Part shown: positions 2,184 through 36,795 of the stretch, piece after piece
How the letters are laid out: the number at the start of each line of letters is the position of its first letter
Numbering within the stretch: the first letter of the stretch is position 1
Virus genome (UHGV): UHGV-0326727
Length of the DNA: 64,000 nt
Source: a virus
Reading direction: 5' to 3' (one strand)
The notes under the pieces: generated by a model
Databases searched by the model: none
The model's input: only the letters and a program-made list of their open reading frames with translations
What the model was told of the DNA's origin: nothing
Made by a program: the position numbers and the translations under genes

Positions 2184-3659
2184 GTGAGAAGAATGGCAGA
2201 TATTACAGAAACACAAGAAAGCTTACCACCATTTAGAATGGGTGAAGTAGGTTCTTTGGGTCTGAAGGTTAAGAATGGTAGAATCTATGAAGAACCTCGT
2301 CAGGCACTAAGGTTCCCTGAAAGTATTAAAACTTTCCAATTAATGATGCGTGACCCTGCTGTAGCAGCATCTGTAAATATTATTAAGATGTTTGTCAGAA
2401 AAGTCAACTGGAGGTTCGTACCTCCAAAGGGAAAAGAGCAAGACCCTAAAATGCTTGAAAGAGCAGACTTCTTTAATTCTTTAATGGATGACATGGAGCA
2501 TGATTGGGCAGATTTTATTAACTCTGTAATGTCATTCTGCACTTATGGGTTCTGTGTTAACGAAAAGGTTTATAAGAAACGTCAGGGTAAAAAAGGAAAG
2601 TATCAGTCAAAATTTGATGATGGTCTAATTGGGTGGGCTAAATTACCAATCAGAAATCAATCAACACTTGATAAGTGGTATTTTGACGAAGACTTTAGAA
2701 AAGTTACTGGTGTTAGACAAAATCTAAGAAATGTTTCACATATTGCTGGAGCAATTAATCTTGGAGAAAGACCACTAACAAGAAAACTTCCACGAGCTAA
2801 ATTCATGCTGTTTAAGTATGATGATGAGTATGGTAACCCAGAAGGTCGTTCACCATTACTTAATGCTTATGTACCGTGGAAGTATAAAGTACAGATTGAA
2901 GAGTATGAAGCTGTTGGTGTTTCAAGAGACTTAGTAGGTATGCCAAAAATTGGTTTACCACCAGATTATCTGGATGAAAATGCAGAACCTGAAAAGAAAG
3001 CTTTCGTACAATACTGCAAAACTGTTGTTAATGATATGATTGCTAATGACAGAGCAGGTTTAATCTGGCCTAGATATATCGACCCAGAAACTAAAGAGGA
3101 TATCTTTGAGTTCTCATTAGTTTCTAGACAGGGTGCTAAAGCATATGACACAGGCTCTATTATTGACAGATATTCCAAGCAAATTATGATGGCATTTATG
3201 TCAGATGTTCTTGCTATGGGTCAGTCAAAATACGGTTCATTCTCTCTTGCAGATTCTAAGACAAGCTTATTAGCAATGTCAGTAGATATTCTGCTGAAGC
3301 AAATTAAGAACGTAATTAACCGTGACTTAGTTGCACAGACTTATGCTCTTAATATGTGGGATGATGAAGAACATGTACAAATCACATATGATGATATCGA
3401 AACTCCAGACCTTGAAGCAATTGGTTCTTATATTCAGAAGACTGTTGCAGTAGGTGCTTTGGAAGTTGACAAAGAGCTATCTAATAAACTTAGAGAGCAT
3501 ATTGGTCTTCCTCCTGCTGATGAGTCTCAGCCAGTATCTGAAAAGCTTTCTCCAAATAGCCAAAGCCGTTCAGGAGATGGTTATAAGACCGCTGGAGAAG
3601 GTACTGCAAAGACACCTTCAGCGAAAGACCCAAGCACAGCAAATAAGGCAAATAAATAA
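2184..3659 (+). CDS. Portal protein
   Basis: 491 aa, directly downstream of terL in the canonical terminase-portal-protease-capsid order; acidic, Ser/Lys-rich C-terminal tail. Confidence 0.75.
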   Translation: MRRMADITETQESLPPFRMGEVGSLGLKVKNGRIYEEPRQALRFPESIKTFQLMMRDPAVAASVNIIKMFVRKVNWRFVPPKGKEQDPKMLERADFFNSLMDDMEHDWADFINSVMSFCTYGFCVNEKVYKKRQGKKGKYQSKFDDGLIGWAKLPIRNQSTLDKWYFDEDFRKVTGVRQNLRNVSHIAGAINLGERPLTRKLPRAKFMLFKYDDEYGNPEGRSPLLNAYVPWKYKVQIEEYEAVGVSRDLVGMPKIGLPPDYLDENAEPEKKAFVQYCKTVVNDMIANDRAGLIWPRYIDPETKEDIFEFSLVSRQGAKAYDTGSIIDRYSKQIMMAFMSDVLAMGQSKYGSFSLADSKTSLLAMSVDILLKQIKNVINRDLVAQTYALNMWDDEEHVQITYDDIETPDLEAIGSYIQKTVAVGALEVDKELSNKLREHIGLPPADESQPVSEKLSPNSQSRSGDGYKTAGEGTAKTPSAKDPSTANKANK

Positions 3660-4159
3660 TGGCTGAAGTTATCTCTATTTCAAATGCTACACGAGTGCAT
3701 TCGTATAGAGGTGTCCTTATCATTACTGATAAGCTATCTGTAGAGGCTGGCTCAAGGGTCAGCCTTTCAGGTTATGTTAGTGATGGTGGAATCTCTGACG
3801 TTTTCACTATTTGTAGGTTACTTGATGCACCAATGAGTGGAAAACCGTTTATTTCAGGAAATTGTAGTGAAATTGTTAAAATTCCATTTGACAGTTCATG
3901 CCTTTTGGGTGTAAAGTTATATAACTGCGAGAATAAACGTATCAATGTTAATAGCATTGAAGCCGCTTTCATTACCCTCGACACTGCATTTCAATCTCCA
4001 ATGACAGTTAATAAAGAAACAAACAGACTTGAATACATTTTTTCACAAAATGATTACAAAGTACTTGTCAAAGGTAAAGTATATGATATGATTGTAAATG
4101 TGGTAGATGAATCTGGTAACCATTCAACAGTCCTTAAACAAAAAGTAAGGTTTAATTAA
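3659..4159 (+). CDS. Hypothetical protein (166 aa) between portal and protease
   Basis: Start overlaps portal stop; no recognisable motif. Confidence 0.4.
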   Translation: MAEVISISNATRVHSYRGVLIITDKLSVEAGSRVSLSGYVSDGGISDVFTICRLLDAPMSGKPFISGNCSEIVKIPFDSSCLLGVKLYNCENKRINVNSIEAAFITLDTAFQSPMTVNKETNRLEYIFSQNDYKVLVKGKVYDMIVNVVDESGNHSTVLKQKVRFN

Positions 4160-30956: not shown

Positions 30957-31193
30957 TCACTCAATAACAGTAGTGTGTGATTGACCATTTTTGCCATAGC
31001 TATAAGATGTTGTTGTTTGAGAGTTTGGACATCTGACAACAACAATATCTCTGCTTATGGCATCACCATGTAACTTATAGACCTTACAATCTTGCATTTC
31101 TGGTGGGAGGCTATAAGAAGCATTCTTATCTTCATAAGAAGGGTTGCAGCCAGTTAGAAAAATAACACCAAGTGTAATTACTGCTTTCCACAT
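30957..31193 (-). CDS. Putative lipoprotein (78 aa)
   Basis: N-terminus MWKAVITLGVIFLTGC: hydrophobic signal plus lipobox L-T-G-C. Confidence 0.5.
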   Translation of the reverse strand: MWKAVITLGVIFLTGCNPSYEDKNASYSLPPEMQDCKVYKLHGDAISRDIVVVRCPNSQTTTSYSYGKNGQSHTTVIE

Positions 31194-31208
31194 AACACAT
31201 CTCCTGTT

Positions 31209-31364
31209 TTATTGTTCACGATGTTCTACTTCTCTGTATGTACGCCGGTAGTTTATGATGAGTTGTGCTAATTCGTTGCTTTTAACATCTGAACGTAGCA
31301 GTTGCCAATCAAAACCTTTACCGACTCTCCCATATAAACTAAATAATTTTACTTTGCGTTTCAT
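31209..31364 (-). CDS. Small basic protein (51 aa), not in ORF track (below 60 aa)
   Basis: Hand-translated: MKRKVKLFSLYGRVGKGFDWQLLRSDVKSNELAQLIINYRRTYREVEHREQ; fills gap between flanking genes. Confidence 0.3.
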   Translation of the reverse strand: MKRKVKLFSLYGRVGKGFDWQLLRSDVKSNELAQLIINYRRTYREVEHREQ

Positions 31365-31381
31365 TTTGGTGTTCCCAATAC

Positions 31382-31609
31382 TCAGAGGTCAATACTGATA
31401 CGTTCACCCTTAAGGACTCCTGTGCGGTCTCTTGCAATCTTACCGTCAACAATAAGGATATGCGCAGACTTTAAAGATTCACTATTAAAACCTTTTACGA
31501 ACTTACTAGGCATCACCACAATAAGCATCTCTTGAATCAACTCTGGAGTGTAGCAATTATCGTGAAGTTGCTGAATAACGTCTGCAAGTGTCATTTTTGA
31601 TGTCTCCAA
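31382..31609 (-). CDS. Small protein, paralog B of duplicated family (75 aa)
   Basis: Shares conserved core with 31797..32015 (DGKIARDRTGVLKGERISI vs GGKIAKDKTGYLKGERVNI). Confidence 0.45.
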   Translation of the reverse strand: METSKMTLADVIQQLHDNCYTPELIQEMLIVVMPSKFVKGFNSESLKSAHILIVDGKIARDRTGVLKGERISIDL

Positions 31610-31800
31610 TATTCAATATCAATAAGTTCTTGTGCAATGCTTTTCAGATTACCTTTCAAGAAAACCTTCTCAGAACCTGAAAGAGATGAATTGTCAATTA
31701 GCCTGTTCATTCTCTCAAACAACTTCTGCTTACGGTTCTTGATAGTTTCCTTTGAAGCACCTTTCATCATTGCTGCATGGGTTCTTCCACGGTGGCTCAT
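31591..31800 (-). CDS. Small basic protein (69 aa) between the two paralogs
   Basis: ORF with overlapping start/stop to both neighbours. Confidence 0.4.
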   Translation of the reverse strand: MSHRGRTHAAMMKGASKETIKNRKQKLFERMNRLIDNSSLSGSEKVFLKGNLKSIAQELIDIEYWRHQK

Positions 31801-32015
31801 AGTAAACTCTCAATATTTACACGCTCACCTTTTAAGTAGCCTGTCTTATCTTTTGCGATTTTACCTCCAGCAATAAAGATATCTACTCTACGTAGAACTT
31901 CAGGGTTTACCTTCAAATTCCTACAGCTACTGCAAAGAACAATAAACATCCCTTCAATCTCTTTTTGAGAATAACCTGCACATTGCAACTGAACTTCAAT
32001 CTCTGAAAGTGTCAT
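31797..32015 (-). CDS. Small protein, paralog A of duplicated family (72 aa)
   Basis: Alignable over full length with 31382..31609. Confidence 0.45.
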   Translation of the reverse strand: MTLSEIEVQLQCAGYSQKEIEGMFIVLCSSCRNLKVNPEVLRRVDIFIAGGKIAKDKTGYLKGERVNIESLL

Positions 32016-32066
32016 ATGTCCTCCTATACAAGATATTGTATAAGGTACTCTTCCATGAGCACCTTG

Positions 32067-32630
32067 TCAAGATAGTTTTGCGAACTCTCCGTGTAGTTTT
32101 ATAGCAGCTTCACAGTAAGCTTTATGGGCTTCTTCTGGTGTGTCAAACATACCAAGATGATAGTTTTTACCCTGTAAACGAATCATTGCTCTAAACCTTT
32201 TACTTATTTTCTGTACACCTTTTGGCAATCCAGATAGGGACTTTCTTGACCGATTACAAGAGTTTTGTGAGGCTGTACAAACCCTCAAATTCAAGTATCT
32301 ATTATCCCAACCATCTCCATTCTTATGGTCAACCTGTAAGGTTTTATCAGGTAGATACCCATCCATGTATAGTATTACTAAACGGTTAGCTTGGTAGCCT
32401 TTACCATCAAGCAACAACTGAACAGACTTGTGACCATCTGTATTTATCCTATAATTACCTGCCTTTTTACCTCCAAAACGAGAGTTGAAGTTCCTATTAC
32501 CTCGTGATATTGGCTCTCTAAACTTCCAAGTAAAGACCCCTGTTTCGGGGTCGTAGTCCAGTAGTTCCTTAAGACGAATTTCTGTAATCATTTCAATACC
32601 ATCAATGCACTTCCAACCAGCTCTTACCAA
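32067..32630 (-). CDS. HNH homing endonuclease with AP2-type DNA-binding domain
   Basis: 187 aa; HNH core VDHKNGDGWDNRYLNLRVCTASQN; C-terminal AP2-like GVQKISKRFRAMIRLQGKNYHLGMFDTPEEAHKAY. Confidence 0.75.
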   Translation of the reverse strand: MVRAGWKCIDGIEMITEIRLKELLDYDPETGVFTWKFREPISRGNRNFNSRFGGKKAGNYRINTDGHKSVQLLLDGKGYQANRLVILYMDGYLPDKTLQVDHKNGDGWDNRYLNLRVCTASQNSCNRSRKSLSGLPKGVQKISKRFRAMIRLQGKNYHLGMFDTPEEAHKAYCEAAIKLHGEFAKLS

Positions 32631-35331
32631 CCTTACCAGTGCCAGTTACAAGCGTCTCTCTCTTCAAACCCAAATTCTGAGATGCCTGACCATACATCCA
32701 GTCAGTTATAGCTTTAACCTCTTGAGTCATACTTTCTGGGCATTCCCAACTGTTTTCATCGTGGTATGCCAGCAAAAGTCTAGCACCGATTGCTGGTTTT
32801 CGTCCATTTAATTTTGTCAACCCTTCTTCACATGCCCTTCTACAAGCAAGGTTAATTGCCTCATTTTGAATCTGAGCCTCTGAACCCATCAAAAGATAGT
32901 TCAACAGTTTGTGTGGAGATTTACACCACAACCAAGCTCCAGCAACCCTTACAAAACCCCCTTTAGAGATTGCAGCAGTCTTACCAAACACCTCTTCAAG
33001 TGCCTTTTTAGTCGCTTTGTAGTCAGCTTCCAAGTCATCTAGCAGCTTCTTAATCTTAGGCAAACGGATAAAGTAAGTCTGTTTAGTCAGTGCACCTTCC
33101 TGAGTAGTTGCAGCTTTAATTGTCTTAGCAAACTTCTCATCACCTGCACCAAACAGTAGTGCATAGATGCCATTCTTAGCTTTCTTACGACCCTTGCTAA
33201 TCTCATGAAGAAGGTTCTCATCCTGAGTAGCTCGACAAGTCAAGATATCCTGCTCATCATTCAAGCTAAAGTAAATACTATTCAGTGTGTGTGCATCAGT
33301 CCCTGAATAGACAACGTAAAGGTCATTCTCAGAGTCATAACGCAGATACTTGTCAACTTCTGGGTTAAGGTACTCATCAAAATGTTTGCAGTAATAGCGT
33401 CCGTCTTCTTGACGAATAAATTCAATCTCTTCTTTACCTTGCGTTACCGCTTTGGTGAAGTCTTTGTCACCCATGAAGTTACAAAGAAGAACTAGCTGGG
33501 CTGAGTTCATGTCTACAGAGACAACGTTAGTACCTTCTTCACAAATCCACACTGCCCTCATTGGTTCCCCATAGACAGCAGCACCAGACGGTACGTTTAC
33601 AATACCATATTGTGTCATACGTCCAGTTGAAGTACCAAATACCATTGCACCAGCACTAAGGCGACCATCTGGACGAATCTGGTTCAACCAACCTTTTTCA
33701 TCATCCTTTGAGTTCTCAATAGTTCTGCGTCTGTGCATCAAAGTATAGTACTTAGCAATCTTCTGTCCAAGCTCACCTTCAATCGTATCATAAGATGATT
33801 CAGTAAGCTTTGGTGAAGTCCTAATCAGACAAGGTTCAAGTAAATCTGTGTACTTCTTAACAGACCAGTTATGCTCAATGTACTGGACACCTTCATGTTC
33901 AACATAACTCAAACCACACCGTTCAACCATCTCCTGCCACTTAGGATGCTTGGTAATCATCTTTTTGTTGTCTTTGAAACGACAAACCTTAACAGGACGA
34001 CCATCTGAGTCTTTCTTGTAGTTCCAGTCATCTGGAATCCAACCAACTGATTTCAAGTAGTCTTTAACAACTGCTACCTGAGTCATACGAGAAACTTCGA
34101 ACTCAATTGGTGTATATGGTGCATCAATCAAACCTGTGTAGCGACTTGACTCAAGCTCAAAGTGGTTAACAACATGGCTGTTATAGTACTTCACAGTCTT
34201 AACTGTTTTTACTGGCTTCCAGTCTTTGCACTTCTTACCAATCTTTGCATTCAACTCATTGCAAATTGCACGAGCATCCTTCATTGCTACAAAGCCTTCA
34301 TTGTACTCTTCACCAGTTACAGAGTTGGTTGGTGTATAGCAATTCCGCTTTTCAATGTTAAAAATCTTTGTAGTTGGCTTACCAAATGGCTTGATTTCAT
34401 ATGTCTGCATTTCACCATTACGTACCTGCTGACGATACTTTGTCTTAGGGTACTTGGTAATTCTCTTCAGTCCATCTGCATGACCGAATGCTTCAACATA
34501 CTCATTCCAAGCTTTTGCAAATTCTTCTCCAGTGACTTTACCTTTGGTCTTAATAGTTGGTGGAAGGTGTGGTTCAACTTCTGAAGCAAGCTCATTAGTC
34601 AACTTGTCAAGTTCCTTTGCATGGAACTCCATAAGCTCTTTATCAGCTTTCCAACCATTGATAGCCTGTTGACTCATCCAGAAAGATGTTTCTTTAGCTC
34701 GCATATAGGTTTCATAAGTATCTATGCCACACTTCTTCAGCTTGAGATATTCATTATCCAGTGCACGTTTAGTTTTGGCGTTAATACGGATATCTTCTAC
34801 AACACGAGTGAAGATTTCTGCATTCCACACACCCCAATGTTCAATCTCTGGTTTACGTACACCAACACGAGCACCCCATGCTGCCAAGCCATGAGCACCT
34901 TTATAACCTTTTGGAGTTGGTCTATCCATCCACTGAACACGAGACTGGATAAGAGAATCCTGAAAGAAATTACTCCACGGCTTACACTTTGGATTATCAA
35001 AGTTCCACAAATCAGGTGCAATGTGATTGAAAACCCACCAGTCATACCCCAGACCATTATGGATGCAGAGTCGTTTTGCCTTTAACGCAAACTCAATGCC
35101 TTCACGTAAGCCACCCTTAATGTACTTGGTATACTTGTGACCGAGGATAGGTTCATCTGTAAAGACCCATACAGGCGGCTCTTCATCGTCAGATTTATAG
35201 TCTGCGAAAGCCATTACGTGCACTTTAGTGAACTCAAGGAGTAAACCATCAGTTTCTGTATCACCAACTAAATGTAAGTTTTTAAAATCTACGTTTTCCA
35301 TTTTTACTCCCTCTAAAATCATTAACCTCAT
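32602..35331 (-). CDS. DNA polymerase, family A, with 3'-5' exonuclease domain
   Basis: 909 aa; Exo I motif GDTETDG; motif A VSVDMNSAQLVLL; motif B RKKAKNGIYALLFGAG; motif C LAYHDE. Confidence 0.9.
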   Translation of the reverse strand: MRLMILEGVKMENVDFKNLHLVGDTETDGLLLEFTKVHVMAFADYKSDDEEPPVWVFTDEPILGHKYTKYIKGGLREGIEFALKAKRLCIHNGLGYDWWVFNHIAPDLWNFDNPKCKPWSNFFQDSLIQSRVQWMDRPTPKGYKGAHGLAAWGARVGVRKPEIEHWGVWNAEIFTRVVEDIRINAKTKRALDNEYLKLKKCGIDTYETYMRAKETSFWMSQQAINGWKADKELMEFHAKELDKLTNELASEVEPHLPPTIKTKGKVTGEEFAKAWNEYVEAFGHADGLKRITKYPKTKYRQQVRNGEMQTYEIKPFGKPTTKIFNIEKRNCYTPTNSVTGEEYNEGFVAMKDARAICNELNAKIGKKCKDWKPVKTVKTVKYYNSHVVNHFELESSRYTGLIDAPYTPIEFEVSRMTQVAVVKDYLKSVGWIPDDWNYKKDSDGRPVKVCRFKDNKKMITKHPKWQEMVERCGLSYVEHEGVQYIEHNWSVKKYTDLLEPCLIRTSPKLTESSYDTIEGELGQKIAKYYTLMHRRRTIENSKDDEKGWLNQIRPDGRLSAGAMVFGTSTGRMTQYGIVNVPSGAAVYGEPMRAVWICEEGTNVVSVDMNSAQLVLLCNFMGDKDFTKAVTQGKEEIEFIRQEDGRYYCKHFDEYLNPEVDKYLRYDSENDLYVVYSGTDAHTLNSIYFSLNDEQDILTCRATQDENLLHEISKGRKKAKNGIYALLFGAGDEKFAKTIKAATTQEGALTKQTYFIRLPKIKKLLDDLEADYKATKKALEEVFGKTAAISKGGFVRVAGAWLWCKSPHKLLNYLLMGSEAQIQNEAINLACRRACEEGLTKLNGRKPAIGARLLLAYHDENSWECPESMTQEVKAITDWMYGQASQNLGLKRETLVTGTGKVGKSWLEVH

Positions 35332-35361
35332 ACATTACTGCAAAAAATTATAAAAAGCAAG

Positions 35362-35391
35362 TTGACAATGTGCTTGACAAGGTGTTAATCT
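35362..35391 (+). promoter_or_regulatory. Sigma70-like promoter region with two TTGACA boxes (second inside CTTGACAAGGTG 12-mer)
   Basis: TTGACA 35362-35367 and 35374-35379; TAATCT -10-like at 35386-35391; divergent region between DNA pol (-) and 35559 (+). Confidence 0.4.
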
Positions 35392-35473
35392 TTGCGAAGT
35401 GGGTTTTTACTTAAAAGGTTACTTAACAGTTTAACTATACAGATACTTTAAAACTCTTAAAAGATTATTTAAT

Positions 35474-35513
35474 AGCTTTTAAAAAGCTTTAAAGTATAAC
35501 GTATAGAATACGT
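35474..35513. promoter_or_regulatory. Two near-palindromic operator-like sites in divergent intergenic region
   Basis: AGCTTTTAAAAAGCT (35474-35488) and ACGTAT-AGA-ATACGT (35499-35513). Confidence 0.35.
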
Positions 35514-35558
35514 TAAGATAAAAGATTAAAACTTAATAGTTACTTAAAAGAGGCTTAC

Positions 35559-35981
35559 ATGCAGAAAATGTTTGTTCACCCAGACATAGCTGACTTTGTT
35601 AGAGCTTTGCAGAAGTTGGAAGAACTTGACATTGCTGCTCAACGGGAATATGCTCACCATCACAGGAGAATGGTTGATATACAACATGAAATAGAGTTGT
35701 CTGAAAACTATGAAGATGACTTAAAATGCTCTGTGTTTGAGCATATGAAAGATGTTGCTACAGCGAGACGTAAAGCTAAAGACACAGTTGCTTTACTAGA
35801 TTCTCTTAAAAAGAGGTTGCAAAGTGGTACAGACCTGTGTAATCTAGCGTCACTGATTAACGATGTTGAAACTTCTTGGGATAGACATTACTATCCACGT
35901 TCTGAAAAGACACTTGACTTTTCTTCATCAGAAAACTTAAAATGTTCTAGAAAGAAACTTAACCAACTGAGAGAGAAATAA
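35559..35981 (+). CDS. Hypothetical protein (140 aa)
   Basis: First gene of + strand early block. Confidence 0.4.
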   Translation: MQKMFVHPDIADFVRALQKLEELDIAAQREYAHHHRRMVDIQHEIELSENYEDDLKCSVFEHMKDVATARRKAKDTVALLDSLKKRLQSGTDLCNLASLINDVETSWDRHYYPRSEKTLDFSSSENLKCSRKKLNQLREK

Positions 35982-35982
35982 T

Positions 35983-36795
35983 ATGAATACTACTGTAGAC
36001 CAGATGCTTGAAGAAAAAGGTATTGACGAAGCATTCTTAATCAATGCCGTAGAAAGCATGGCTATGATTCTTCGTGGAAACAACTACACAGAACAGTTTA
36101 TGCCTGCAAGCTATAACTTGCCTAAAGACAAGTCTGATAACGGTGCTTTTGCAGAACAGGTTAATATGATGCTGTGTGATAAAACACTTGCTTTAGCATC
36201 TATCGTTGTAGGTGTTGATGCTCTTGCAGAGTTCATTTTCTATGAGATGCAGAAAAATGACTATATTGCCATGACCTCTGAAGAAAAAGACTCGCTACTG
36301 CTCTTAGGTTATGATGAGCTAGTTGACCTGTTAATTTCGTCAACAAGTGCTGTTATGGCTGCTCTTGAGAAGCGAATGGAAGAGAAGCTGTCACGATATG
36401 AAAAACTTGATTGGGGTGTAGAAGAGTTAAACCCACGAATCAAAGAGATTATCCAGCAAACTAAAGACTCTTTAGCAGAAGCTGTGAAAGATGATTCTGT
36501 AGCTGATGTAGAACCACTACAGGTGAAGGTTGCTCTGATGATTCCAGCTATCTCTACAATGATGAATATCGTTGCACTAATCCAACTTTCTCAGATGTTG
36601 GGTGTAACCATTGAGTTCGTTGAGGAGATGACTGGTGGTGTCAGTATGCAAGCAATCAATGATGTTTTGGTAAACATTGGCGCTTCAATCATTGAAGAGA
36701 AGCTACGTATCAACTTCGGTGATGATTTTGTGAAGCAAATCTCAGCTATTGCTGAAAAAGAGCACTCACAAATTACTAGTGACCAACTGCACTAA
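35983..36795 (+). CDS. Hypothetical protein (270 aa)
   Basis: ORF; followed by terminator. Confidence 0.4.
   Translation: MNTTVDQMLEEKGIDEAFLINAVESMAMILRGNNYTEQFMPASYNLPKDKSDNGAFAEQVNMMLCDKTLALASIVVGVDALAEFIFYEMQKNDYIAMTSEEKDSLLLLGYDELVDLLISSTSAVMAALEKRMEEKLSRYEKLDWGVEELNPRIKEIIQQTKDSLAEAVKDDSVADVEPLQVKVALMIPAISTMMNIVALIQLSQMLGVTIEFVEEMTGGVSMQAINDVLVNIGASIIEEKLRINFGDDFVKQISAIAEKEHSQITSDQLH

Follow-up and report, generated by a model that had tools for sequence, protein, structure and literature searches.

Is the small nuclease gene that abuts the 3′ end of the DNA polymerase gene in this phage a mobile element, or a resident kept for the benefit of its carrier? The window, by which we mean the whole stretch of 64,000 nucleotides that was analysed, belongs to a Felix O1-like myovirus of the genus Felixounavirus, and its polymerase gene is intact and intron-less. 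The 2-kb stretch around the nuclease gene finds matches in 259 phage records, the best about 94% identical, and nearly all of these records are of Felixounaviruses from Escherichia, Salmonella, Shigella or Citrobacter. The original prediction saw in the gene a free-standing homing endonuclease gene (HEG), that is, a mobile element. We hold it to be quite probable that the gene is indeed a free-standing HEG of a Felix O1-like phage, a reading which gains support from an exact insertion site, empty alleles in relatives, a diverged flank, an intact active site and purifying selection. The features on which the argument depends are collected in Table 1.

Table 1. Features of the polymerase-nuclease locus, in window coordinates
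Feature	Coordinates	Strand	Remarks
Family-A DNA polymerase gene	32602..35331	minus	909 aa; Pfam DNA_pol_A, E 1.7e-15
Diverged polymerase 3′ haplotype block, putative co-conversion tract/target region	32602..32841	minus	last 240 nt, stop codon included
HNH-AP2 ORF with TTG start	32067..32630	minus	187 aa, from the ORF list
In-frame extension up to the TTG	32592..32630	minus	last 26 coding nt of the polymerase gene, its stop codon and a 10-nt spacer
Likeliest HEG coding sequence, lineage A	32067..32591	minus	ATG at 32591, 174 aa, stop TGA at 32069-32067
GC-rich hairpin GACCCC-GAAACA-GGGGTC, then TTTACTT	32535..32552	minus	codons 14-19, D-P-E-T-G-V
Predicted HNH (HNN-type beta-beta-alpha-metal) catalytic core	32250..32345	minus	residues ~83-114
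Predicted C-terminal AP2-type DNA-binding domain	32070..32216	minus	residues ~126-174, three strands and a helix
Locus-specific 3′ tail DTPEEAHKAYCEAAIKLHGEFAKLS with stop	32067..32144	minus	last 25 codons (75 nt) and stop
Conserved intergenic block TTGACAAGGTGCTCATGG...TATACAATATCTTGTATAGGAGG, downstream insertion border	32016..32070	minus	~95% identical in all occupied and empty alleles

The gene and its product

The gene had been described as an ORF of 187 codons that starts 29 nt inside the end of the polymerase ORF, on the same strand. Its coordinates, the extent of the overlap (32602-32630) and the common minus-strand orientation all stand, but the overlap is probably an artefact of ORF calling: the true start is more likely to be the ATG at 32591-32589 than the TTG, so that neither the 187-residue length nor the 29-nt overlap is probably biological. 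This ATG sits 10 nt past the polymerase TGA (32604-32602), the Met1 column of the corresponding protein is at least 90% conserved among 68 family members, and the three other lineages that occupy the same site begin at an equivalent point, be it through a TGATG stop/start overlap, with an ATG 4 nt past the stop, or with an ATG 17 nt inside the polymerase gene. The in-frame extension, which is used by some GenBank records, is probably not translated as a part of the nuclease, and the annotation of the start is inconsistent there, with 564 nt counted from the TTG in XTG1 and 537 nt in Mushroom. Beginning past the polymerase stop and in a different frame, the HEG lies outside any intron or intein, and a search of positions 31000-36000 against Rfam returned no match and detected no intron RNA; on these two grounds a reading of the HEG as part of an intron or an intein was rejected. 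When the protein was compared with the whole window by tblastn at E<=10 it retrieved itself only, hence no second copy of the gene.

A sigma-70 scan found no promoter directly upstream of the HEG on the minus strand, and there is no clear Shine-Dalgarno sequence ahead of the ATG at 32591; we may therefore presume co-transcription with the early polymerase message, followed by weak, coupled translation. The 96-80 transcription unit of Felix O1 opens with the polymerase gene (PMC3185647). At the other end of the gene, the TGA stop codon falls within a TTGACA hexamer of the intergenic block. The thought that it might thereby sit inside a canonical sigma-70 promoter was dropped, since the hexamer came without a properly spaced -10 box in the promoter scan.

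That the product is an HNH nuclease carrying an AP2-type domain, as predicted, was borne out by both profile and structure. Pfam HNH_3 (PF13392) is matched with 45.4 bits (E 6.4e-12) for a cut-off of 24.8, and PHROG 99, 'HNH endonuclease', with an E-value of 1.7e-59. Pfam AP2 (PF00847) is matched with 26.6 bits (E 7.3e-6), under its gathering score of 33.3, and many homologues have a precomputed match to it. The AlphaFold model, built on 68 homologues, is confident and compact (pLDDT 94.3); its AP2 part, with strands at residues 126-129, 132-139 and 142-149 and a helix at 152-170, superposes on the GCC-box domain of AtERF1 (1gcc) with an rmsd of 0.8 A over 50 residues at 36% identity, and over residues ~126-174 Foldseek also matched the AP2 domain of TEM1 (7et4/7et5, rmsd 1.2 A) and WRI1 (7wq5). 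Judged from the model, the AP2 assignment is right in structure despite the missed Pfam threshold.

The first Foldseek match of the protein as a whole is I-HmuI of the Bacillus phage SPO1 (PDB 1u3e; E 2.8e-5, probability 1.00), with a low global TM-score of 0.38, as expected because the domains are flexibly linked. I-HmuI is also the sole significant solved relative by sequence (phmmer, E 5.6e-5), and thus the best PDB match on both counts. Residues D88, H89, N101 and N110 align with D74, H75, N87 and N96 of I-HmuI; among the 68 homologues D88, N101 and N113 are invariant, while H89 and N110 are at least 90% conserved. The HEG protein has no CX2C zinc dyads and therefore falls into the 'HNN' subtype, which has been discussed for phage HNH-AP2 proteins (PMC2248197). 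Taken together, the model and the alignments depict a protein in three parts: a DNA-contact region rich in beta structure at the N-terminus, a metal-dependent nuclease core of the I-HmuI-like HNH ('HNN') type, and, at the C-terminus, the AP2 domain for DNA binding. The likeness to I-HmuI extends to a length of 174 residues, to an HNN-type core devoid of zinc dyads with its D-H...N...N residues in register, and to an elongated multi-domain DNA-binding architecture, and the gene in which I-HmuI is housed, and which it targets, is that of a phage DNA polymerase. Yet the two proteins are just 21% identical, I-HmuI is encoded within a group I intron whereas the Felixounavirus HEG is free-standing past the polymerase stop, and the C-terminal DNA-binding module of the solved I-HmuI structure is a helix-turn-helix where the Felixounavirus protein has an AP2 domain.

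The protein has a large family, with 885 database proteins at E<=1e-5, mostly of 160-180 aa and combining PF13392 with PF00847. We know of no member close to the Felixounavirus HEG that has a mapped target, and in the literature we found no measured cleavage, target site or homing frequency for the HEG protein or its close relatives. HNH-AP2 ('HNN-AP2') HEGs have been described as a family that occurs in phages, cyanobacteria and ciliates (Magnani 2004, cited through PMC10448857 and PMC2248197), and relatives of up to 94% nucleotide identity, Mushroom for example, are annotated as 'HNH homing endonuclease, AP2/ERF domain' by the polymerase gene; the kind is therefore known, and finding one more is ordinary. 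Six HNH genes have been reported in Felix O1 alone (PMC3185647). The family has the same domain order and length, and likewise comes in multiple copies per phage genome, but the copies in the Xanthomonas phages Xp10, OP1 and Xop411 were reported to be scattered, with no conserved flanks (PMC2248197), whereas the Felixounavirus HEG occupies one exact site with conserved borders. What can be added is modest: the occupancy of a single site by several lineages, a tail that they share, and a hairpin locked at the codon level.

Occupied and empty sites beside the polymerase gene

Relatives were gathered through the polymerase C-terminus, which yielded 32 loci from IMG/VR, and several GenBank loci were added. 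Distant IMG/VR loci that lack the downstream marker (L024-L026) were placed outside the classification, and the 32 classifiable loci are made up of the window, two from GenBank and 29 from IMG/VR. The site is occupied in 19 of these and empty in 13; among 51 Felixounavirus records, sampled at regular intervals from the GenBank matches to an empty allele, the figures are 33 and 18. The original prediction had proposed this very comparison, and named universal presence in relatives as what would speak against it; with empty sites in both samples, the outcome was in its favour. The insertion point is exact and the same in all classifiable loci, between the polymerase stop and the conserved TTGACAAGG intergenic block. 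Empty alleles read from the polymerase stop through TTAGTA or TAGTG into TTGACAAGG, and occupied alleles hold an insert of 481-534 nt that consists of one HNH-AP2 gene. The 55-nt TTGACAAGGTGCTCATGG block downstream of the insert precedes the next gene and may belong to the recognition site.

Four lineages can be told apart among the inserts, with some 30-55% amino-acid identity between them and third codon positions only ~30-40% identical, that is, saturated. Counting GenBank records that cover at least 80% of a lineage-specific query, out of the ~259 that hold the locus, lineage A (the window, LF82P1, XTG1, Alf5 and Mushroom) has 28, lineage B (Si3 and DaR-2019a) 49, lineage C (phiSUSP1 and Sf13) 58 and lineage D (Felix O1) 18, so that by subtraction about 40% of the records would be empty. 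Polymerase backbones that are near-identical carry A or B in some genomes and no HEG at all in others.

The last part of the polymerase gene contains a diverged block which includes the motif C codons (YHDE, at 32755-32766). Divergence between lineage A and empty alleles is 0.19-0.28 in this block versus 0.07-0.15 upstream. When the last 800 codons of the polymerase gene are compared with those of close relatives devoid of the HEG (L007, L008, L009, L011 and L020), dS is 0.07-0.39 over the first 2130 nt and reaches 1.3-2.3, with dN at 0.13-0.14, in the last 270 nt; against three close relatives that bear the HEG (L003 with a lineage-A gene, and L004 and L015 with lineage-B genes) dS in those 270 nt is 0.20. 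Haplotype and occupancy are associated (13/3 vs 3/10, Fisher p = 0.003, computed on observations that are not phylogenetically independent), with exceptions on both sides, since three loci (L013, L016 and L017) combine a HEG with the 'empty' haplotype and three (L029-31) lack it on the 'occupied' one, and the polymerase 3′ alignment contains no fixed substitution between all occupied and all empty alleles. Nuclease genes are known to occupy boundaries of genetic exchange (PMC10448857); the pattern seen here is the one expected where such a gene marks a boundary of this kind, and it would be consistent with co-conversion in the course of homing. Many genomes share the left border of the diverged block, which fits one old recombination event as well as repeated homing.

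Homing, domestication or decay

How would such a gene spread? Homing has been shown experimentally for several T4 genes, and it is from the Seg and Mob genes of that phage, together with I-HmuI, that we infer cleavage, homing and marker exclusion for the Felixounavirus HEG. The T4 pairs SegG/gene 32 and MobE/nrdB, as well as the IPA-HNH HEGs of ICP1, resemble the present case in being intergenic and adjoining an essential gene of DNA metabolism, in their presence/absence polymorphism and in a diverged flank that is consistent with co-conversion or marker exclusion. They differ from it in their nuclease and binding modules, Seg proteins being GIY-YIG enzymes. The T4 Mob class combines an HNH-3 domain with a C-terminal zinc finger (PMC10448857). 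HEGs do cluster beside polymerase genes (PMC10448857, PMC2248197), which are present in 29% of the neighbourhoods of IPA-HNH HEGs (PMC10448857). On this reading, the HEG would be co-transcribed with the early polymerase transcript and translated at a low level, by coupling or by re-initiation 10 nt past the polymerase stop. When two phages infect the same cell, the enzyme might then bind an extended site in a genome without the HEG, situated at the 3′ end of the polymerase gene and the TTGACAAGG junction or close to them, a site that in its own genome would be split by the insertion of the gene. It would nick or cut the HEG-less DNA (nickases such as I-HmuI are close structural relatives of the enzyme), and recombinational repair would copy the HEG, along with up to ~240 nt of adjacent polymerase sequence, from the genome that carries it. 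Over time, at least four lineages could have exchanged the central part of the gene, bounded by the polymerase end on one side and by their common 75-nt tail on the other.

Another reading is that of an inactive relic, a decaying remnant of an old invasion which no longer cuts DNA and is merely carried along. Against it, pairs of lineage-A genes have dN/dS values of 0.06-0.10 at dS values of up to 0.86, all copies examined have a full-length ORF, and the gene is kept intact by strong purifying selection; conservation extends to the catalytic D, H, N and N, and the model, compact and of high confidence, shows a canonical AP2 fold. It is true that HEGs commonly decay after fixation (PMC2248197), that a fragmented lineage-A-like copy is found in the Shigella phage vB_SflM_004 and that the Pfam AP2 score is sub-threshold, but decay remains a very improbable description of the gene in the window.

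Very strong purifying selection would be equally expected of a domesticated gene, encoding a nuclease or DNA-binding protein kept because it benefits the phage, whether by excluding competitors, by introducing nicks in host or phage DNA that serve replication or recombination, or by regulating downstream early genes through its AP2 domain. Several features would agree with such a role. The site is filled in ~65% of genomes, and all four lineages have been maintained there. The divergence of the HEG follows that of the backbone: dS values of 0.29 and 0.86 in the HEG go with 0.2-0.35 and 0.8-1.1 in the polymerase gene, and this rough tracking in lineage A points to long vertical inheritance rather than to recent sweeps. 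The stop codon of the HEG belongs to an intergenic block that precedes the next genes and is highly conserved, and HEG-like nucleases and DNA-binding domains have repeatedly been co-opted (PMC10448857). Against this, the gene is missing from 35-40% of otherwise near-identical phages, and is therefore dispensable; the precise polymorphism of empty and occupied sites, together with the flank haplotype, is the classical signature of a HEG; and the intact catalytic residues tell us that the protein is not a pure DNA binder. Domestication strikes us as rather unlikely; benefit to the phage and homing are not mutually exclusive.

The neighbourhood holds yet another mobile element, and one may ask whether the two travel together. 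In some relatives a group I intron splits the polymerase gene at codon 724/725, in motif B, a point equivalent to 33160/33159 in the window. It comes in an ORF-less version (L033 and Mushroom, L036; Rfam RF00028, 62 bits each) and in a version of ~800 nt with a 179-aa EndoVII/HNH-like ORF (L028-L032). Collaborative homing, in which the HEG nuclease would target the intron site 555 nt upstream so that nuclease and intron were mobilised together, has a precedent in psbA and F-CphI of cyanophages, and in its favour are the relatives with an ORF-less intron and the presence of a lineage-A HEG beside a split polymerase gene in Mushroom, warpig, Tf, garuso and NS7. But in the loci fetched the intron has no association with the HEG, being found with lineages A (Mushroom, L036), B (L028) and C (L033) and at 4 of the 13 empty sites (L029-L032), and its longer version has a nuclease ORF of its own. 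Furthermore the window has the HEG and is intron-less, and would therefore be sensitive to its own enzyme, while the diverged block linked to the HEG reaches no farther than 240 nt into the polymerase gene from its end and stays well clear of the intron site. This scenario is barely credible. The genome note on Mushroom described only a 383-bp gap between two polymerase genes (PMC4392139).

Understanding the gene as a free-standing HEG has consequences for annotation, in that its start codon can be corrected and that it should be listed as a mobile element and not as a part of the replication module. It would also explain mosaic breakpoints in Felixounavirus polymerase genes, which are used in taxonomy and in the comparison of therapy phages. 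The locus, where four diverged nucleases share one site and an intron polymorphism lies close by, would make a convenient natural system; relatives with an empty site are abundant and can be grown on E. coli K-12, and one could measure there how HEGs home, how cassettes are replaced and what a HEG costs a virulent phage.

A shared tail and a codon-locked hairpin

The four lineages have more in common than the site they occupy. The 3′ tail is ~90% identical in nucleotides across all of them, while the remainder of the genes is saturated at synonymous sites, and sliding identities at third codon positions are 80-100% in the tail vs 30-40% elsewhere. Constraint on the protein was rejected as the cause of this conservation, for third positions are conserved as well, and paralogues at a second Felixounavirus locus have a different tail. 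Lineages A and C are also alike in their first ~30 codons, at 75-80% nucleotide identity. These genes are therefore mosaics, and the comparison suggests that a central cassette has been replaced by recombination between the polymerase end and a 3′ segment resident at the locus.

The hairpin lies ~40 nt into the gene, where its codons belong to the family motif YDPETGVFTW. The hairpin, with a 6-bp stem and a U-rich tail after it, has a free energy of -12.8 kcal/mol in all lineages, and it was flagged as terminator-like in a scan of the window. The arm codons are GAC CCC and GGG GTC in 12 of 12 Felixounavirus HNH-AP2 genes, taken from the four lineages and the second locus, whereas other Gly, Ala and Pro columns that are invariant in amino acid in these 12 genes use all synonymous codons. 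This indicates that the hairpin would be under selection at the nucleotide level in Felixounavirus. A conserved patch of gene conversion is an unlikely cause, with the arms alone fixed and the loop and both flanks variable. A hairpin common to the whole family was rejected: in an unbiased sample of 73 members from outside Felixounavirus the codons vary, and the six pairs form in just 2. Nor is there a larger RNA structure around the start codon, a 141-nt fold giving z = -0.11, the same as shuffled sequences, so that the local hairpin alone is robust.

From these observations we would tentatively put forward, as a possibility that we regard with some doubt, that Felixounavirus HNH-AP2 genes contain two undescribed nucleic-acid modules. 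One would be the hairpin, selected at the DNA or RNA level as a candidate attenuator, 3′-end element or palindromic protein-binding site; the other would be the 75-nt tail, acting together with the polymerase end as a homology arm for the exchange of whole cassettes. We found no description of either the shared tail or the codon-locked hairpin in the literature consulted on these phages and on HEGs, and the Felix O1 genome paper considered terminators in intergenic regions only (PMC3185647). If this were true, a hairpin working as an attenuator or a 3′-end element would end or stabilise the polymerase message and throttle the expression of the nuclease, and nuclease cassettes of different specificity would swap at a single site, a 'cassette-exchange' mode of HEG turnover as against the classical course of invasion, decay and loss. 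The hairpin is thus a small hint that HEG expression, or the formation of the polymerase mRNA 3′ end, might be controlled from inside the coding sequence of the HEG.

In the window the hairpin string occurs once, for an expected number of 0. The same string is also met in unrelated AT-rich phage contigs, as non-coding, terminator-like hairpins.

The shared 3′ tail and the variable polymerase site

The four diverged lineages of the homing endonuclease gene (HEG) that occupy the site next to the DNA polymerase gene are saturated over most of their length, while their final 25 codons retain about 90% nucleotide identity (L004, L013, L021 and other relatives' loci). As the HNH-AP2 paralogues present at another locus carry a different tail, this pattern points to the HEGs of the polymerase site being mosaic genes and to cassette replacement. 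These paralogues, found in further Felixounavirus genomes (IMG/VR contigs L103, L109, L155, L060 and L078), form their own set of diverged sublineages, with a common 5′ end, MLTQQTLKEYLHYDPETGVFTW, and particular tails (..LHKEFANKGDE / ..HGEAYE); no copy of them lies within the 64-kb window.

Two HEG-less relatives, L029 and L030, display the 'occupied-type' haplotype at the 3′ end of their polymerase gene, which terminates with TGA, as in lineages A and B, whereas the other empty alleles use TAA. This combination may be a sign that the HEG was lost precisely, or else that recombination took place exactly at the junction. The region just 3′ of the HEG is also variable, since the closest relatives, LF82P1 and XTG1, lack a stretch of about 215 nt of the window that matches in size the gene for a 72-aa product, absent from the annotation of XTG1. 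This product and its 75-aa neighbour are paralogues of each other (..DGKIARDRTGVLKGERISIDL / ..GGKIAKDKTGYLKGERVNIESLL).

Coordinates of features at the polymerase site and in relatives
Feature	Position	Strand	Remark
Small-gene pair downstream of HEG, 75 aa and 72 aa	31382-31609 and 31797-32015	minus	
HEG 3′ tail common to lineages, final 25 codons	32067-32144	minus	nucleotide identity
Stable GC hairpin GACCCC-N6-GGGGTC, then U-rich tail	32535-32552	minus	within HEG
Empty-allele junction, L029 and L030	about locus 3556-3570		
Polymerase intron	L033 3284-3567; L036 (Mushroom) 3655-3959; L028-L032 about 2200-3000		relatives only

A hairpin within the endonuclease gene

The codons forming the hairpin arms, GAC CCC and GGG GTC, are unchanged in all 12 HNH-AP2 genes of Felixounavirus, drawn from two loci, whereas those of other invariant residues vary freely. 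This suggests that selection acts on the hairpin at the nucleotide level. Its conservation was not found in the rest of the HNH-AP2 family, outside Felixounavirus. Possibly, the hairpin acts as an attenuator, a 3′-end element or a binding site.

HEG-like fragments and a polymerase intron in relatives

In Shigella phage vB_SflM_004 (MK295205), fragments that share 88-100% protein identity with the HEG of the window are spread over three different frames (L168 1200-3060), inside a 1.8-kb unannotated gap that does not adjoin the polymerase gene; they are probably a decayed HEG copy at another locus, or the result of sequencing errors.

The polymerase gene, uninterrupted in the window, is split in some Felixounaviruses by a group I intron, which matches Rfam RF00028 at 62 bits and is inserted at the equivalent of window 33159/33160, in motif B (polymerase codon 724/725). 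It comes in two versions, one devoid of any ORF and another, of about 800 nt, with a 179-aa EndoVII/HNH-like ORF. The Mushroom paper termed the interruption a 383-bp gap, and GenBank labels the split genes as two polymerase 'subunits'.
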